NCBI GenBank assembly: GCA_902576605.1
Contig: CACGVI010000003.1
Location: 919 to 64,918 of the forward strand
Reading direction: 5' to 3'
Length of the DNA: 64,000 nt
Source of the DNA: an uncultured Candidatus Actinomarina sp.
GTDB taxonomy: Bacteria > Actinomycetota > Acidimicrobiia > Actinomarinales > Actinomarinaceae
Below the pieces are notes generated by a model, which saw nothing but the letters and a program-made list of their open reading frames with translations, ran no database searches and had not been told where the DNA came from. Positions within the stretch are counted from its first letter, which is position 1. Every line of letters starts with the position of its first letter. Positions 3,506-51,622 of the stretch are shown here, piece after piece. Position numbers and translations under genes: made by a program.

Positions 3506-4666
3506 GTGGAAAACAAAGAGTTCAATCGTACACTTACTCTAAAAAGTTCTATTTATTTGGGTTTAAGCTCAATGATCGGAGCTGGACTTTTTAATAATAT
3601 TGCCCCTACAGCAAAAATAAGTTCGTACGGTGCGATCCTTGGACTACTTTTAGCTTCAACATTAGCAATAGCAAACGCTTCTTCTTCTGCACAACTCTCA
3701 TCACTGTTTCCAAAAACTGGTGGTACGTATTTGTATGCAAATGAAGTACTTGGGAGACCATATGCAATTATTGCTGGTGCAGTATTCATTATTGGCAAAA
3801 CAATTAGTTGTGTTGCAATAGCGCTAACAGTAGGCAACTATCTTTCTCCTGTATATGGAAAAGAAATTGGTGTTGTTTTATGTGTTTTAGTATTTTTGTT
3901 GAGTTTTTCCGGAATTCACAAAACAGCAGAAATCGCTAAATGGTTTGTTTGGATAATTTTTGGACTGCTTTTATTTTATGCTGTCTCAATCATTTCAACA
4001 CCAAATGTTGATTTAAGTATTCCAATCTTTGAGAGTGTTTCATTTGATAGTATCTTGTTATCTGCAAGTATATGGTTTTTTGCTTTTACTGGATACTCGA
4101 GACTTGCGACATTTGGAGAGGAAATAAAAAATCCTAAAGAAATTATCCCTACAGCAATTTTTACTGGTCTAGGGGTAACAATCTTGCTGTATTTTGGAAT
4201 TACTTGGTTAACTCTATCAATAATCAGTCCAGAATTTATTATGAACTCAAACACACCTCTTCTTGTTGCCATGGATGTGAGTAGGTTTTCAGAGTTTTCC
4301 TTTTTAATTGTTTTTGCTTCTTCTATTGCTATGGTTTCTGTGTTTCTTGCTTTGATGCCTGGAATTAGCAGAATATATGTTGCGCTTTCTAGAGACAGAG
4401 TACTTCCAAAAGCTTTTTCAAAAATTCATAAAAAATTTAACTCTGCTTATTTCTCAGAAGGCTTTGTGCTTATTTCTGTAATAATTGGTATTTATAGTTT
4501 TGATGTTGTTGAGTCTATAAGACTAAGCTCATTTTTTATTTTGATCTATTATACAATTACTAATTTATGTGTTGTGAGGCTTAAAAAGGGAGACCGGCTT
4601 TATTCAGTAGTAATTGCAATATACGGGTTTACAATGTGTTTATTGCTAGCTTTGCACTTACTTTAA
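3506..4666 (+). CDS. APC-superfamily amino acid/polyamine permease
   Basis: 386 aa with about 11-12 TM segments. The N-terminal block SSMIGAGLF...YGAILGLLLAS and FAFTGYSRLATFGEEIKNPKE are typical of APC permeases. GTG start. Confidence 0.7.
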   Translation: MENKEFNRTLTLKSSIYLGLSSMIGAGLFNNIAPTAKISSYGAILGLLLASTLAIANASSSAQLSSLFPKTGGTYLYANEVLGRPYAIIAGAVFIIGKTISCVAIALTVGNYLSPVYGKEIGVVLCVLVFLLSFSGIHKTAEIAKWFVWIIFGLLLFYAVSIISTPNVDLSIPIFESVSFDSILLSASIWFFAFTGYSRLATFGEEIKNPKEIIPTAIFTGLGVTILLYFGITWLTLSIISPEFIMNSNTPLLVAMDVSRFSEFSFLIVFASSIAMVSVFLALMPGISRIYVALSRDRVLPKAFSKIHKKFNSAYFSEGFVLISVIIGIYSFDVVESIRLSSFFILIYYTITNLCVVRLKKGDRLYSVVIAIYGFTMCLLLALHLL

Positions 4667-16668: not shown

Positions 16669-16744
16669 AATTTCCTTTCTTACCTTGAGAAAATGTACGA
16701 AATTTTAGAAACTTCATTCCTTCTCTCGAGGATTGTTGTCTTAT

Positions 16745-16830
16745 AAATATTGAAGGCGACCTGACTTATCTTTCGAATCACAGTTGCGGGACAGTGTTAG
16801 GTTTTCACTAACTTCGCTTCAGTATTCTTT
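16745..16830 (-). promoter_or_regulatory. Cobalamin (B12) riboswitch, compact/variant type
   Basis: The minus strand reads GAAGCGAAGUUAGUGAAAACCUAACACUGUCCCGCAACUGUGAUUCGAAAGAUAAGUCAGGUCGCCUUC. The core GUGAAAAxC...CxGUCCCGCxACUGUGA and the B12-box-like AGUCAGGUCGCC align with the cobalamin riboswitch consensus. P1 is GAAGCG/CGCCUUC. Confidence 0.7.
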
Positions 16831-16845
16831 TAAGATGTTAGCAGA

Positions 16846-47074: not shown

Positions 47075-49315
47075 CTAAACAATTGCAAAACTTTCATTTG
47101 AAAAATCTATTGATAAGCTTTGTGATGTAGATATTATTGAAAAATTATTTTCACCAATACCAAGAATTGCTGGAATTCTATGTTCAGCACACCTTATTGC
47201 CATGTGAGAGTTGGGACCTCCATACTGGGTAATCAATGATTTGATTTTATAATTAAAAATCCAATCCCATCCTGGGTCTGCTGCTGGAATAACTACTATC
47301 TTATTATCAAGGTCGTAAGGTTGATTTGAATGATGGTCAAGTAGCAAAATTTCTCCAGAAACTGTTCCTTGTCCAATGTAATTTCCTTCTTTGCTCATTT
47401 CCTCATATAAATAAAAATCATCGGATGACGAGATTAAGTCAGGCATTAATGTGTTTTTAAGATCTAAATTAATTGTATTTTCTTGGTTAAATTCAATATT
47501 TAGTCTTTGAAAAAGTTCTTCGTCGCTTATATTTTGCTCCTCTATTTCATTTAAAATACCATCAATTCCTTTCGTATAGTAAAATTTTGAATTCTCTCTT
47601 GTTGCAATAGCATTCTGAAACATCTCAATCCACGATGATGCTGTGTATGGAATATTGTTAAATTTAAAATACTTATCAATATTTGAAAATATAGCTTTTT
47701 GCAATGAAACATTTTCATCATGTATTTCACTATTTTGAATCAACAGCTCAGTGAACTCTAAATTATTTCTTAAATTAGATGAAGATAAATTATAGTTACC
47801 GGCCCTAATGTGTCCATAAATGTCTAAAAAGCTATTAAGACTTTCTTTTCCAATTTTGACTTGATAAGCGTCCGCCTTCATTTTCGTACTTATCGACTTT
47901 ACTGACAACAATAACGAGTTTTTATGTGCTTCGGAGATTACTTCTTTTCTCAAAAGATTATTTAACTGAGCAAAATACACAAACCCCAATCTTGAATGAT
48001 GCGTAAATGGCAATGCCATATTGTCTCTAATAAATTTTATATTTTCTTTTTTAGAGTATTCATAATTTCCATCAAGCAAAGAGAATGCTTTCAACATAGT
48101 TTTATTGTTTTTTTCTAGAGTCGATTTGTTAAAGCTATCAATATGAATTAAATCTTGATGCCATTTCTCAATCTCTTCTGGGCTAATAATTTTTCTATAT
48201 TCATTTGCGAACTCATCTTCAGAATCAAACACATATGACGATCGAGAGATATTAAATTCAATTGAATCGTGTAAATGTGGGTTCTCTTTCAATTTATCTA
48301 ATTGATGTTGTATTATTTTTTCGCAAGTATCGACTTGTAAGCTTCGAGTTAAAAAACTATTTAAACTATGGTTCACATTTATGTAGGGTACATTATTGAA
48401 AAGCTCCATTAATTTAGCCGGTTTATATTTTCTATAACCAAATTCACCGCGCTGTATATTCCATGTTGAGTCTGTAAACATAAATTTATATAAGCCAAAT
48501 GCAACATTGTCAGGTTTTTTTCCAATCATTTCGGCTGGATTCATGTCTGACATATTGCTAAAAAGGTGATTTATACCAAAACGATCATCCGTAGTATCTT
48601 TTAAAGCCTCATATTTTTTTATATTCTGCTCAATTATTTTTTTCTCTGTAAAGATCAAATCCTTATCAACTTTCCTTTCCATCAGAGGCCGTACTTGCAA
48701 AAGCAGTGGAGAAGAATTGTTATTTAAAACCATTTCAATGTCTAAATGTTTGTTCCCAAATAAATCTTCTAATTTTGTCAGAATATTTAGATATATAGAA
48801 TATTCATCATATTTTTTTGGTAACTTGTTTATTGATCTATGAACATAAAAATTTTTAATCTGATTGTACTTTCCAGATGTAACAGCATCAGTTTCTGGCC
48901 CATTATAAATTGAAAATGATCTGTAAAGAGAGTCTGTCCCAACCTTAAAAGATGTAAGCACAGATACACTTCTTGCGTTTTTTACATAATCTTGCAAAAT
49001 CACGGTCTGATTAACATCTTTTTCGTAGCTATTTAACACTTGATTCCATGATTTTTTAATATCATTTATTCTTTTCTTGCTAATTGGTCCGATGGAAAGA
49101 TATTTACCTGCATTAGAAGAGCTCTCTAAGTCTTCATTAGAACTATTGCTTCTAATCATTATTTCTTCTGAAAAATCATTAAGAATCTCGTTAATATTTT
49201 CTAAATCTTTCAAAGAAAGCTCTCTAAAGTATGGAATTTCTATATCCGTATGGTTTGCCACAAACTCTAGGTTTTTAGCTTTATTACCATAATTTATTTG
49301 ATCATCCATTTTCAT
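47075..49315 (-). CDS. PEP-utilising-enzyme family phosphotransferase: PPDK_N ATP-grasp domain, about 380 aa unknown central region, then a swivel phosphohistidine domain with no C-terminal PEP/pyruvate TIM barrel
   Basis: N-terminus YGNKAKNLEFV, IMIRSNSSNEDLESSSNAGKYLS, HLDIEMVL...LLLQVRPL (PPDK_N blocks). C-terminus VVIPAADPGWDWIF...LITQYGGPNSHMAIRCAEHRIPAILGIG (mobile His domain). The protein ends about 45 aa after the catalytic His. The start ATG abuts the trpB2 stop (TAGATG). Confidence 0.75.
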   Translation of the reverse strand: MKMDDQINYGNKAKNLEFVANHTDIEIPYFRELSLKDLENINEILNDFSEEIMIRSNSSNEDLESSSNAGKYLSIGPISKKRINDIKKSWNQVLNSYEKDVNQTVILQDYVKNARSVSVLTSFKVGTDSLYRSFSIYNGPETDAVTSGKYNQIKNFYVHRSINKLPKKYDEYSIYLNILTKLEDLFGNKHLDIEMVLNNNSSPLLLQVRPLMERKVDKDLIFTEKKIIEQNIKKYEALKDTTDDRFGINHLFSNMSDMNPAEMIGKKPDNVAFGLYKFMFTDSTWNIQRGEFGYRKYKPAKLMELFNNVPYINVNHSLNSFLTRSLQVDTCEKIIQHQLDKLKENPHLHDSIEFNISRSSYVFDSEDEFANEYRKIISPEEIEKWHQDLIHIDSFNKSTLEKNNKTMLKAFSLLDGNYEYSKKENIKFIRDNMALPFTHHSRLGFVYFAQLNNLLRKEVISEAHKNSLLLSVKSISTKMKADAYQVKIGKESLNSFLDIYGHIRAGNYNLSSSNLRNNLEFTELLIQNSEIHDENVSLQKAIFSNIDKYFKFNNIPYTASSWIEMFQNAIATRENSKFYYTKGIDGILNEIEEQNISDEELFQRLNIEFNQENTINLDLKNTLMPDLISSSDDFYLYEEMSKEGNYIGQGTVSGEILLLDHHSNQPYDLDNKIVVIPAADPGWDWIFNYKIKSLITQYGGPNSHMAIRCAEHRIPAILGIGENNFSIISTSQSLSIDFSNESFAIV

Positions 49316-50671
49316 CTATTTGTTTACTGACTCCAAAGCTACTTGAACTTTTTCAGACGGAAATTCGTAGTCAACCATCTCCCCACTCAAAAAGTTTTCA
49401 TAAGCTTTCATATCAAAGTGACCATGTCCACACATTGCTGTCAATACGGCAATACTTTCAGAATTTTGGTCGGCATCTTTCACTGCCCTAATTGCTGACG
49501 CAATTGCATGAGTTGCTTCTGGAGCAGGTATTATGCCTTCTGTCTTAGCAAATAGTTGACCAGCCTCAAAACATTCTTTTTGGCCTATTGCTTCTGCTTC
49601 AATTAATTTTTCTTCATACATTGCGCTGACTAGTGGTGCCATTCCGTGGTATCTTAAACCACCTGCATGAATTGGATCAGGCACAAAAGAATGACCAAGG
49701 GTATGCATTTTGACTACGGGGGCCATTCCTACTGAATCCCCAAAATCATATGCATACGTTCCCTTAGTCAAAGATGGACAAGCCTGTGGTTCAACAGCTC
49801 GTATAACTGTAGATTTGTTATTTTGAATATTTTCTCTAGCAAAAGGTGTAAAAAGACCAGCAAAATTCGAACCACCACCAGTGCAACCAACTATCACATC
49901 TGGATAATCGTCTGCCAATGCCAATTGTTTTAGTGCTTCCTCTCCAATAATGGTTTGATGCATTAGAACATGGTTCAAAACACTTCCAAGTGCGTACCGT
50001 GTTTTCTCATCTTTAGCAGCAACTTCAATTGCTTCTGAAATGGCAATGCCTAGACTTCCTGGAGTTTCAGGGTCCTCGGAAAGAAACTTTTTACCAATAT
50101 CTGTTCTTTCAGAGGGGCTTGAGTATACCTTTGCGCCGTATATCTCCATCATCGTTTTTCTATAAGGTTTTGCTAAGTATGATGCAGCTACTTGAAACAC
50201 CTCTAACTCAATTCCAAAAGCCTGGCATGCAAAAGCCAAAGCAGAGCCCCATTGGCCAGCACCTGTTTCAGTAACCATTTTTGTAACACCTTCTTCCGCG
50301 TTATAAAACGCTTGGGGGATTGCAGTGTTAGGTTTATGAGAGCCAGATGGTGATCCACCTTCATATTTGTAATAGATTCTTGATTTTGTACCTAGAGCTT
50401 TCTCAAGTCGAACTGCTCTAAATAAAGGAGAAGGTCTATAAAGCTTATATAAATCTAGGACAGGCTTTGGTATATCTATAAAAGAATCTTGAGACACTTC
50501 TTGTAAAATCAATCCCATTGGAAATAAAGGAGCTAAATCCTCCGGACCAATTGGCTCCATTGTTTGCGGGTTCAATGGTGGTGGTAATGGATTTGGTAAA
50601 TCCGGGATTATGTTATACCACTGTGTCGGCATCTCAGATTCTGATAGTAAAAATTTATATTGCTTGCTCAT
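49316..50671 (-). CDS. trpB: TrpB2-type (TrpB-like) PLP-dependent tryptophan synthase beta-chain homolog
   Basis: 451 aa (the long TrpB2 form). PLP-lysine block YYKYEGGSPSGSHKPNTAIPQ, ETGAGQWGSALA, GCTGGGSNFAGL. GGAGG SD 4 nt upstream. No other trp genes are nearby. Confidence 0.85.
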   Translation of the reverse strand: MSKQYKFLLSESEMPTQWYNIIPDLPNPLPPPLNPQTMEPIGPEDLAPLFPMGLILQEVSQDSFIDIPKPVLDLYKLYRPSPLFRAVRLEKALGTKSRIYYKYEGGSPSGSHKPNTAIPQAFYNAEEGVTKMVTETGAGQWGSALAFACQAFGIELEVFQVAASYLAKPYRKTMMEIYGAKVYSSPSERTDIGKKFLSEDPETPGSLGIAISEAIEVAAKDEKTRYALGSVLNHVLMHQTIIGEEALKQLALADDYPDVIVGCTGGGSNFAGLFTPFARENIQNNKSTVIRAVEPQACPSLTKGTYAYDFGDSVGMAPVVKMHTLGHSFVPDPIHAGGLRYHGMAPLVSAMYEEKLIEAEAIGQKECFEAGQLFAKTEGIIPAPEATHAIASAIRAVKDADQNSESIAVLTAMCGHGHFDMKAYENFLSGEMVDYEFPSEKVQVALESVNK

Positions 50672-50686
50672 TGTTCCTCCTAAAAT

Positions 50687-50712
50687 AAAAAAACCGGGCT
50701 GTGCCCGGCTTT
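50687..50712 (-). terminator. Intrinsic terminator (attenuator) in the trpB2 leader
   Basis: Minus strand: AAAGCCGGGC-ACA-GCCCGGUUU, where the final UUU is the start of a 7-nt U run that extends the stem. It ends 6 nt before the trpB2 SD. Confidence 0.7.
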
Positions 50713-50736
50713 AGAAAACAACATAGAACTAGGCAC

Positions 50737-50781
50737 CTACATATGTAGCGTCCACCAGTTCCAGTTTGTTACTTTATACAT
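50737..50781 (-). CDS. Trp-rich leader peptide (14 aa, MYKVTNWNWWTLHM)
   Basis: ATG TAT AAA GTA ACA AAC TGG AAC TGG TGG ACG CTA CAT ATG TAG, read by hand on the minus strand. It has three UGG codons and is followed by the antiterminator/terminator pair upstream of trpB2. Confidence 0.6.
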   Translation of the reverse strand: MYKVTNWNWWTLHM

Positions 50782-50788
50782 TGTTATT

Positions 50789-50816
50789 AATGTAGATGTT
50801 TTTAATAAAATTTCAA
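50789..50816 (-). promoter_or_regulatory. Candidate promoter giving a leaderless transcript for the trp leader peptide
   Basis: TTGAAA (50816-50811), a 16-nt spacer, TACATT (50794-50789), then 7 nt to the leader ATG. No SD is present. Confidence 0.35.
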
Positions 50817-50893
50817 AATTATTTTTGTAAATTTTTTGTTAACAGGAAGTATCAAAATATCCATATATCTATTCATAACCTAGTATTGGATGC

Positions 50894-51622
50894 ATGAATA
50901 AAATAATTCACTCCGTCAATCTTACAAAAGTTTATGGTGAGAAAGAAACAAGCGTTACGGCATTAGACAATATTAATGTTGAATTTAAAGAAAATGAGTT
51001 TACAGCAATCATGGGTCCATCCGGTTCGGGAAAGTCAACTTTACTTCATTGTTTAGCAGGATTAGACAGACCAACATCTGGTCAAATATTTCTAAAAGAA
51101 GATGATATATCAACTTTAAACGATAAACAATTAACAAAAATTAGAAGAGACAGCTTTGGATTTGTTTTTCAGGCTTTTAATTTAATCCCCACTTTAACTG
51201 CTGAAGAAAATATTACACTACCAGCATCTATTTCAGGAAGAAAACCAGATATGGAATGGGTCAAACAGGTAGTTGAAACAGTGGATATTGGCGATAGGTT
51301 AACACACAGGCCTAATGAGCTATCTGGTGGACAGCAACAGAGAGTAGCAGCTGCTAGAGCCATGGCTACAAAACCTGAAGTAATTTTTGCAGATGAGCCA
51401 TCAGGAAATTTAGATTCAAAATCAAGTAAAGAACTTTTAAGTTTCATGAAGTCCGTGGTTGACGAGCTTAACCAGACAATCATCATGGTTACACACGATC
51501 CATACGCTGCTTCCTACGCCAATAGAGTAATAATGCTTAAAGATGGAAGAATTGCTAGCGACTTAGACCAACCAACACAAGAAGAAATTGTTGCAGAGGT
51601 TACGACTTTAACTAACATCTAA
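50894..51622 (+). CDS. ABC transporter ATP-binding protein (MacB/FtsE-like)
   Basis: Walker A GPSGSGKST, signature LSGGQQQRV, Walker B IFADEPSGNLD. Confidence 0.9.
   Translation: MNKIIHSVNLTKVYGEKETSVTALDNINVEFKENEFTAIMGPSGSGKSTLLHCLAGLDRPTSGQIFLKEDDISTLNDKQLTKIRRDSFGFVFQAFNLIPTLTAEENITLPASISGRKPDMEWVKQVVETVDIGDRLTHRPNELSGGQQQRVAAARAMATKPEVIFADEPSGNLDSKSSKELLSFMKSVVDELNQTIIMVTHDPYAASYANRVIMLKDGRIASDLDQPTQEEIVAEVTTLTNI

Follow-up and report, generated by a model that had tools for sequence, protein, structure and literature searches.

In the model that Yanofsky developed for the trpL leader of Escherichia coli, tandem tryptophan (Trp) codons lie within segment 1 of the leader transcript, a ribosome that has reached the leader stop codon covers segment 2, and the pairing of segments 2:3 overlaps that of segments 3:4. 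A leader with this arrangement is described here from an uncultured Candidatus Actinomarina sp., where it stands upstream of trpB2, a gene for a TrpB-like enzyme of the TrpB2 family, in a stretch of 64,000 nucleotides (nt) of contig CACGVI010000003.1 (the window). Judged by its sequence and its conservation, this leader is very probably a classical ribosome-mediated Trp attenuator that reads the supply of charged tRNA-Trp and that controls, at this locus, both trpB2 and a gene for a protein of 746 amino acids (aa) that follows it. Several related systems are on record. Candidate classical Trp attenuators have been reported in the trp operons of Corynebacterium and Streptomyces (Seliverstov et al. 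2005, PMC1262725), and in C. diphtheriae the trp leader reads MTNMNAHNWWWRA and the ilvB leader lies on a leaderless transcript (PMC5784534). In mycobacteria, leaderless polycysteine short open reading frames (ORFs) attenuate cys operons (bioRxiv 10.1101/834739), and these Cys elements have no obvious intrinsic terminator (PMC1262725). In Sinorhizobium meliloti, termination at the Trp attenuator rnTrpL/trpL yields a trans-acting small RNA (PMC6614838).

The leader, trpB2 and the 746-aa gene all lie on the minus strand, and their parts are as follows, in coordinates of the 64-kb window.

50811–50816, minus strand: −35-like hexamer TTGAAA, read from the sequence and also found in a consensus scan.
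50789–50794, minus strand: −10-like hexamer TACATT, a 16-nt spacer away from the −35, in a promoter listed by the consensus scan.
50737–50781, minus strand: leader ORF MYKVTNWNWWTLHM, 14 codons plus stop, without a Shine-Dalgarno (SD) sequence.
50752–50763, minus strand: regulatory codons UGG AAC UGG UGG (Trp-Asn-Trp-Trp).
50745–50763, minus strand: segment 1, the 5' strand of the 1:2 anti-antiterminator, which holds the Trp codons, from minimum-free-energy folds.
50737–50748, minus strand: inner hairpin CUAC-AUAU-GUAG, the tip of 1:2, which contains the leader stop codon.
50724–50740, minus strand: segment 2, the 3' strand of 1:2, from the folds.
50700–50712, minus strand: segment 3, the terminator 5' arm AAAGCCGGGC plus the loop ACA.
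50687–50699, minus strand: segment 4, the terminator 3' arm GCCCGG plus seven U.
50676–50680, minus strand: SD sequence GGAGG of trpB2, 6 nt past the U run.
49316–50671, minus strand: trpB2, a TrpB-like pyridoxal phosphate (PLP) enzyme of the TrpB2 family, 451 aa, with its start ATG at 50671.
47075–49315, minus strand: the 746-aa gene, with its ATG immediately 3' of the trpB2 stop codon.

Every element that a first-pass annotation of this DNA had placed lies where that annotation put it on the minus strand, and both the promoter and the terminator that it had claimed are listed independently by the consensus scan. The leader ORF reads ATG TAT AAA GTA ACA AAC TGG AAC TGG TGG ACG CTA CAT ATG TAG, and its ATG (50781) is separated from the −10 by 7 nt, AATAACA, that hold no SD sequence. 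Directly 3' of the stop codon, the segment 2 bases GUGCCU (50736–50731) form the 5' strand of the antiterminator, whose 3' strand is GGGCAC (50706–50701) within segment 3. The terminator hairpin, AAAGCCGGGC-ACA-GCCCGG followed by seven T (50712–50687), begins 24 nt after the leader stop codon, and the consensus scan gives it a stem of 10 pairs, six of them G-C, and a 3-nt loop. The leader is the sole ATG-initiated short ORF with WW or WxW and a downstream G+C-rich hairpin and T-run terminator in the 64 kb; a scan of ATG short ORFs with WW or WxW, in which the script scored the T run alone and terminators were called by inspection, found no second Trp leader in the window. The upstream neighbour is a gene for an ABC ATPase (50894–51622, plus strand), and because this gene is divergent the hairpin terminates no upstream gene.

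Comparison with the described systems places the novelty of this locus in its context. The leader resembles the E. coli trp attenuator (the Rfam Trp_leader type) in its logic, in its four-segment layout and in the predicted termination of an untranslated leader through 1:2 pairing, but there is no sequence or covariance-model similarity between the two; the Actinomarina ORF has no SD sequence and apparently sits at the 5' end of its transcript, its regulatory codons spell WNWW, and it would control a lone TrpB2 gene, not trpEDCBA, in a host without the rest of the pathway. With the candidates from Corynebacterium and Streptomyces, which belong to the same phylum, it shares a run of two or three UGG codons, a terminator that is rich in G+C and followed by a U run, and a complementary triple (gGCC-rGCy-GGCC in those genera; GUGCC / CCGGGCAC / GCCCGG in Actinomarina), whereas the operons behind those candidates are full ones (trpE..., 'trpB1EDGC', 'trpB2A') in high-GC prototrophs and the Actinomarina element precedes a single TrpB2-family gene in an acidimicrobial lineage of 33–36% GC. 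Like the ilvB leader of C. diphtheriae and the mycobacterial Cys ORFs, it is a short ORF predicted to lie at the 5' end without an SD sequence and to sense one amino acid by codon runs; start sites were mapped in those cases, whereas in Actinomarina it is the promoter geometry that points to leaderlessness, and, unlike the Cys elements, the Actinomarina element has a canonical terminator. The likeness to rnTrpL, a discrete terminated small RNA, bears on the gene-less copies of the Actinomarina leader treated below, although trans function has been demonstrated in S. meliloti and the orphan copies may at most hint at one here. The RNA mechanism is textbook, and Actinobacteria have supplied earlier examples of Trp attenuators as well as of leaderless leader peptides; it is the genomic context that is new. 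The first-pass annotation had been aware of no TrpB2-type gene described as attenuator-controlled, and no report of an attenuator before a TrpB2-family gene was found in the literature consulted; the nearest literature match, 'trpB2A' of C. diphtheriae (PMC1262725), is a trpA-linked trpB copy whose family could not be checked.

Folding of the 119-nt leader gives −37 kcal/mol, as compared to −24.8 ± 3.4 kcal/mol for shuffled sequences (z = −3.66), and none of 200 shuffles was as stable. In the minimum-free-energy fold the UGG stretch UGGAACUGG (50763–50755) pairs with CUAGUUCUA (50732–50724), and the helix extends through G-C and AC/GU pairs to the CUAC/GUAG tip with the stop codon, resulting in a 1:2 hairpin of −21.8 kcal/mol that buries GUGCC, the proposed antiterminator strand. 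Because this hairpin sequesters the antiterminator strand, an untranslated leader should also terminate. The first-pass annotation had listed a terminator and an antiterminator, both of which stand, but had omitted this anti-antiterminator, in which the UGG codons pair with segment 2. Its antiterminator, between GUGCCUAGUU (50736–50727) and AGCCGGGCAC (50710–50701), pairs as it had described, over 10 positions with one A-C mismatch and two G-U pairs; the first six pairs (50736–50731 with 50706–50701) are conserved among relatives, but the other four are not. The window's terminator has a predicted energy of −14.8 kcal/mol. The folding comparison that the annotation had proposed thus yields 1:2, 2:3 and 3:4 as alternative structures, and in these predicted folds the element is a full E. 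coli-style 1:2 / 2:3 / 3:4 design.

The effect of a translating ribosome was modelled as a mask, spanning −15 to +12 relative to the A-site codon, within which no base may pair, with the transcript folded as far as the terminator loop, before segment 4; the size of the mask follows general knowledge of the ribosome footprint, which extends from the A site to about +12. By such standard footprints, a ribosome on the leader stop codon would be expected to cover 50736–50727. In the window's leader the 1:2 hairpin forms when no ribosome is modelled, the GGUGCC...GGGCAC antiterminator forms at −9.7 kcal/mol when the mask is placed on the last UGG, and segment 2 is covered when the mask is placed on the stop codon. 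Among 39 distinct versions of the element, in all of which segment 2 begins 0–4 nt past the stop codon, an antiterminator of at least 5 base pairs (bp) is predicted in every version with the ribosome stalled at the last Trp codon, in 3 of 39 with no ribosome, and in none with the ribosome on the stop codon. In the 1:2 hairpin, bases of the Trp codons pair with segment 2 in 39/39 versions, at a mean of −19.4 kcal/mol. The masking logic proposed in the first-pass annotation is therefore reproduced in these models.

These structures suggest how the leader may work. Transcription would start at or near the A of the leader AUG, and a 70S ribosome would load on the 5' end without an SD sequence. When Trp is plentiful, the ribosome would pass UGG-AAC-UGG-UGG, reach the stop codon (50739–50737) and cover GUGCCU; with GUGCCU covered, segments 3:4 would pair and the polymerase would stop at the hairpin and U run, 16 nt before the trpB2 AUG. 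When charged tRNA-Trp is scarce, the ribosome would stall on the UGG codons and mask segment 1, leaving segment 2 free, and the free GUGCCU would pair with GGGCAC once the latter is transcribed, blocking the terminator so that trpB2 is transcribed. If the leader is not translated, segments 1:2 would pair and termination would follow. The purpose of such an arrangement would be to induce tryptophan synthesis from scavenged indole and serine or O-phosphoserine in a host that has no other part of the trp pathway.

Conservation of the element was assessed from 39 distinct versions, each extending from the ATG to the T run, of which 13 were retrieved via the TrpB2 protein alone. The alignment of these versions (A2) combines genome loci, relatives obtained by protein look-up, and pattern hits from metagenomes, where the pattern scan returned 78 loci, two of them chance matches. 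Among 80 TrpB2 loci, the leader lies upstream of trpB2 in 11/11 Actinomarina genomes, with the leader peptides MKNVTSWNWWSTT, MKYITSWNWWSTT, MKNVINWHWWTTT, MKNITNLNWWTST and MINVINWHWWTTT. Relatives at 82–92% TrpB2 identity, obtained by exact protein look-up, also carry it, including MYKLNSWNWPDSHM at locus L081 (82% identity), MFKTNNWNWWRLHM at L087 (89%) and MYKTNNWNWWKLHP at L088–L091 (88%), and on a 1.07-Mb contig (L170), as large as a complete Actinomarina genome, MIHSNNWNWWTLHM stands in front of trpB2. Because no DNA pattern was used to choose the genome-locus and look-up sequences, there is no circularity in finding their Trp codons conserved. All 39 versions, the 13 protein-retrieved ones among them, have two or more Trp codons, and 34 have three. 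The leader ORF has 13–14 codons throughout, the distance from the ATG to the first Trp codon is fixed at 18 nt, and the difference in length is one in-frame 3-nt indel, with no frameshifts. The amino acids of codons 2–6 vary freely, as would be expected if the leader is translated but the sequence of its peptide does not matter.

These same features bear on whether the ORF could be incidental to a translation-independent RNA switch, be it a T-box-like element, a riboswitch or a TRAP-like site. UGG has no synonymous codon, and its bases lie within the 1:2 helix, such that its conservation could be structural. The retention of the frame in all 39 versions, with its fixed spacing and single in-frame indel, is nevertheless hard to reconcile with an incidental ORF, as are the placement of the ATG 7–8 nt from the −10, the placement of the stop codon always where a terminating ribosome would cover segment 2, and the free variation of the amino acids at codons 2–6, a trait of known leader peptides. 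At 95 nt the element is too small for a T-box, and it contains two UAG triplets and no GAG, as compared to the 9–11 spaced (G/U)AG repeats that TRAP needs. No Rfam family reaches its gathering score in the leader, and a scan of the whole window gave an adenosylcobalamin (AdoCbl) riboswitch elsewhere only; with E values of up to 10 admitted, positions 50500–51000 gave chance-level, far-sub-threshold matches, the best being AbsR28 at 21 bits against a threshold of 50. A switch of this kind is highly unlikely.

The mutually exclusive helices of the classical attenuator, by comparison, show compensatory change. In the antiterminator core (A2 columns 47–52 with 79–84, corresponding to 50736–50731 with 50706–50701) pairing holds in 229 of 232 cells, and at three pairs both partners have changed in a compensatory way, in 15 cells. 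The covariation score is 0.348, as compared to 0.189 ± 0.014 for shuffles, none of 500 of which matches it, and in slid controls, where the 3' partner was moved by 1–3 columns, 35–53% of cells are paired. Natural variants of GUGCC:GGCAC include GGACC:GGUCC, UGAUC:GGUCA, CUGCC:GGCAG and GGUGCU:GGCACC, and RNAalifold, with the alignment alone as input, returns the same antiterminator helix. The covarying columns lie inside free gaps of the search pattern and are hence unselected, and the covarying 3' partners include bases of the terminator loop, which have no reason to covary outside an antiterminator. In the inner hairpin 99% of cells are paired, and two of its four pairs carry double changes (CUAC/GUAG to UCAC/GUGA or UUAC/GUAA); the terminator stem is 96% paired in the 39 versions, and the two hairpins jointly are 97% paired, with three pairs carrying double changes. 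The outer 1:2 helix was judged by per-sequence folding, since the MAFFT columns of the window type and of the L004 type are out of register. The alignment of orthologs suggested in the first-pass annotation thus finds the Trp codons kept and the stem changes compensated across the 39 versions.

The lineages that share the ORF, the Trp codons and the covarying alternative helix have TrpB2 proteins that are only 70–90% identical. This makes it scarcely credible that a chance short ORF happens to lie beside a constitutive terminator or insulator hairpin and that nothing is regulated, a reading that draws on the many promoter-like hexamers that AT-rich intergenic DNA yields but is contradicted by the covariation, and in particular by that of the loop. 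With the upstream gene divergent, moreover, there is no gene end at this point for a terminator to serve, and a terminator 16 nt before a start codon would silence the gene behind it unless bypassed. More distant loci do not share the element. No credible Trp-rich short ORF was found at the 69 other TrpB2 genome loci, mostly of high-GC Acidimicrobiia and Actinomycetes and some labelled Proteobacteria, whose TrpB2 proteins are 63–70% identical to that of the window, or at two further high-GC TrpB2 loci from metagenomes; the few WW-containing ORFs at distant TrpB2 loci are not conserved and have no terminators. The element pattern had no match among viral contigs.

Promoter geometry is likewise conserved. 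In 37 of 42 distinct upstream sequences the leader ATG is preceded by a TAnnnT hexamer, at a distance of 7 nt in 31 of them and of 8 nt in the other 6, and TTGnnn lies 16 nt (at times 18) from the −10, often with a TG extension, in 37/42, with no SD sequence. The hexamers vary in sequence between lineages and are constant in position, while their surroundings diverge. This geometry suggests that transcription starts at or beside the A of the leader ATG and that the mRNA is leaderless, as the first-pass annotation had proposed from the window alone.

Two side observations concern the DNA upstream of the leader. On the 1.07-Mb contig an automatic call of a neighbouring gene for a tRNA_edit-domain protein (L170 3325–3906, minus strand) overlaps the leader promoter and the first leader codons; the leader ATG lies at about 3891, and the call, ending at 3906, leaves just 94 nt before trpB2, so that its N-terminus is probably over-extended. 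In three contigs (L089 at about 1900–2000, L090 at about 270–370 and L091 at about 1830–1930) sequence like the 3' half of a tRNA or transfer-messenger RNA (tmRNA), consisting of a T arm, an acceptor stem and CCA, lies upstream of the leader on the opposite strand. No tRNA or tmRNA gene was called upstream of the leader in L088–L091 by ARAGORN or Rfam. The DNA beyond this stretch differs between the contigs, and it looks like an island boundary.

Several points weigh against the attenuator reading. The conserved antiterminator is short, at six pairs, and the antiterminated structure, at about −10 kcal/mol, is less stable than the terminator, at about −14 kcal/mol; the advantage of the antiterminator must therefore be kinetic, as in E. 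coli. In L149 and L164 it is weakened to 5 bp and −5.1 kcal/mol. (These two versions look chimeric: segment 2 is like that of the window type, and the 5' part of the leader and the terminator are like those of the L088 type.) Subtypes differ in the register of the outer 1:2 helix, which precludes a formal covariation count for it. Most versions were collected with the metagenome pattern, which fixed TGGAAYTGG, covering the first two Trp codons, together with CAT and CCCGG plus T6; base conservation at these positions is circular in the metagenome set, and only the 13 protein-retrieved variants are unbiased in this respect. Promoter-like sites number 6 in 3 kb of this AT-rich DNA as compared to 9.7 expected, and the promoter hexamers alone are not significant; their weight comes from their conserved position. 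Finally, the leader is not strictly a trpB2 device, given that 13 loci carry it with no gene and four with the 746-aa gene only, as detailed below.

Three further features of the leader RNA were noted. RNAalifold also pairs GGAACUGG (50762–50755; A2 columns 20–27) with CCGGUUUU of segment 4 (50697–50690; A2 columns 88–95). This pairing of Trp codons with segment 4 is near-invariant, and so uninformative, and it probably arises because any four-segment attenuator has segments 1 and 3, and likewise segments 2 and 4, that resemble each other. In all subtypes other than that of the window (for example L006–L011 and L092), the stretch from the T run to the SD sequence of trpB2 holds a second conserved element, GTCACTGAAATTAAAACTCCGGGC(TC)AACCCAAA (L004 2948–3000). 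In the minimum-free-energy fold of these subtypes its ACUCC pairs with the SD sequence GGAGU, and its CCGGGC is the exact complement of GCCCGG in segment 4. In such folds antiterminated transcripts could free the SD sequence, and those that arise by leaky read-through could keep it closed; the window's subtype does not have this element. In a low-GC relative whose TrpB2 is 75% identical (L083 70–210) the leader is different, reading MRPIQSSNWWPIGQI, and is not followed by a U-run terminator. There is complementarity between its codons 6–8 (UCCUCAAAUU) and AAUUUGAGGA, the SD region belonging to ATG 205, where trpB2 probably truly starts; this single sequence suggests a translational form of Trp attenuation.

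The assignment of the controlled gene to the TrpB2 family is based on its scores, which are 705 bits with NF009057 (cut-off 366) and 607 with TIGR01415 (519), as compared to 144 with TIGR00263 for canonical trpB (392). The closest structures in the PDB are those of Sulfolobus TrpB2 (6hul_B and 4qys_B), and the protein has the PLP-lysine motif GSHK. TrpB2 enzymes reportedly prefer O-phosphoserine, a preference said to have been described by Busch et al. in 2014. The window's TrpB2 is 96–99% identical to those of Candidatus Actinomarina single-cell genomes and 84–87% identical to those of other Actinomarina, and the trpB2 loci of this low-GC actinobacterium have 34–36% G+C; the actinobacterial origin that the first-pass annotation had implied is thus borne out. 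The first-pass annotation had called trpB2 a stand-alone gene. This is right in that no other trp gene accompanies it, but its transcription unit here probably takes in the 746-aa gene, which abuts its stop codon. The KEGG orthology group of TrpB2 is K06001. Actinomarina was called a tryptophan auxotroph in both genome studies (PMC7771536; bioRxiv 10.64898/2026.04.03.716425), and the supplementary table of the latter scores K01609, K01657, K01658, K01695, K01696 and K13503, covering trpA–F with trpB, in 0 of 84 complete genomes; K06001 is absent from that table (bioRxiv 10.64898/2026.04.03.716425), where trpB was scored as K01696 alone. The lone TrpB2 of Actinomarina thus seems to have been overlooked in the published statement on auxotrophy.

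A lone trpB2 has a precedent in Pyrococcus horikoshii, which has lost all other trp genes, and the physiological role of stand-alone TrpB2 has been debated for two decades, including in organisms poor in trp genes (PMC1854888). Indole salvage by TrpB2 has been shown in Thermococcus kodakarensis, according to the account of Hiyama et al. 2014 given in PMC11085991. These archaeal systems resemble that of Actinomarina in having a TrpB2-type enzyme that converts free indole to tryptophan and, in P. horikoshii, in its retention after the other trp genes were lost. They differ in that no regulatory tie to tryptophan is known there, whereas trpB2 of Actinomarina lies behind a putative Trp-codon attenuator. 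Such an attenuator, predicted from sequence, is regulatory evidence which argues that the useful product of TrpB2 is tryptophan and that trpB2 would be induced when charged tRNA-Trp is short, and it makes the question of TrpB2's role testable.

Few bacteria of the surface ocean are as abundant or as streamlined as Actinomarina. TrpB2 induced by a shortage of charged tRNA-Trp would argue that many strains meet their Trp need from indole and serine or O-phosphoserine, and an indole-based supply of Trp would change the predicted nutrient dependency of these bacteria and point to indole cross-feeding. Although described in print as strictly auxotrophic for Trp, Actinomarina may use indole from its environment to make tryptophan under the control of Trp starvation, in some strains and not in others; we regard this proposition as evenly balanced. 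Classical leader-peptide attenuation, probably on a leaderless transcript, would in any case have been retained in a genome of about 1 Mb with few regulators.

The second gene behind the leader joins trpB2 at ...AAATAG ATG AAA ATG..., and it is probably co-transcribed with trpB2 and so under the same attenuator. Its protein has a C-terminal phosphoenolpyruvate (PEP)-utiliser domain of the phosphohistidine swivel type (PF00391) and a weak N-terminal match to PPDK_N (ATP-grasp), and it scores 495 bits with NF004508, against a cut-off of 501. The best PDB matches, 5fbs and 5hv1, whose depositions carry the names phosphoenolpyruvate synthase and rifampin phosphotransferase, align in the swivel domain only. 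The predicted architecture is rifampin phosphotransferase-like (that of an RPH-like phosphotransferase). The best 120 matches of a homologue search are close Actinomarina relatives only, and an AlphaFold2 model built on a 13-sequence alignment, with a mean predicted local distance difference test score (pLDDT) of 34, is unusable. An obligate pairing of trpB2 with the 746-aa gene was considered and rejected, since the latter follows trpB2 in 4 of 11 genome loci and in 14 of 44 resolved metagenome loci. In four metagenome loci (L103, L107, L113 and L120) the 746-aa gene lies directly behind the Trp leader and trpB2 is absent; in L113 the SD sequence and ATG of trpB2 are fused to the second codon region of the 746-aa gene, and L107 retains a remnant of the trpB2 start. 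That the 746-aa gene sits under the Trp leader both with and without trpB2 makes it worth following.

The flanks of the locus are syntenic: genes for an M20 peptidase, FtsX and the ABC ATPase border it at one end, and phosphodiesterase-like and ABC-3 genes do so at the opposite end. All four states, that is, presence or absence of trpB2 and of the 746-aa gene, occur at this one locus, and the informative metagenome loci divide as follows.

trpB2 behind the leader: 57 of 74 loci (14 with the 746-aa gene, 30 without it, 13 unresolved).
746-aa gene only behind the leader: 4 of 74 loci.
No gene behind the leader: 13 of 74 loci (the orphan leaders L097, L100, L104, L115, L117, L133, L134, L137, L143, L144, L150, L156 and L158).

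The orphan loci have an intact leader ORF, hairpins and terminator, and the neighbouring genes point towards the element from both sides. In the eleven contigs that are long enough, more than 900 nt pass without a plus-strand ORF of 60 aa or more; L133 and L158 end 400–475 nt past the element. Since flanking synteny is intact and all four states occur at one locus, the orphans are most simply regarded as deletion remnants at a variable spot. They are also the ground for supposing that the terminated leader RNA, or the 14-residue peptide, acts in trans, as rnTrpL/peTrpL do, with control in cis secondary or one of two roles, for which there is precedent in S. meliloti (PMC6614838). One orphan lineage (L115, L134 and L144), in an unrelated context between inositol-monophosphatase-like and gltB-like genes (both identified by ORF reading), keeps a good promoter and a compensatory UUAC/GUAA hairpin, and copies of the element from the main orphan clade share 94.8% identity, as compared to about 85% for the flanks, an estimate biased by a pattern search that requires parts of the element. 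That same clade, however, has lost the TTG of its −35, has its −10 at 5 nt from the ATG, and includes one copy in which UGG has become UGC. A trans role is, on this evidence, distinctly unlikely, and control in cis by attenuation is the preferred account of the leader.

The Trp leader is nonetheless present in at least four different genomic neighbourhoods. It is conceivable, if rather unlikely, that the leader is an autonomous and portable Trp-starvation module, serving a small regulon that includes the 746-aa enzyme, and that its orphan copies could act in trans in the manner of rnTrpL. Elsewhere in the window, the AdoCbl (cobalamin) riboswitch aptamer mentioned above (RF01482) lies at 16706–16839 on the minus strand and scores 57.8 bits, as compared to a gathering score of 50.

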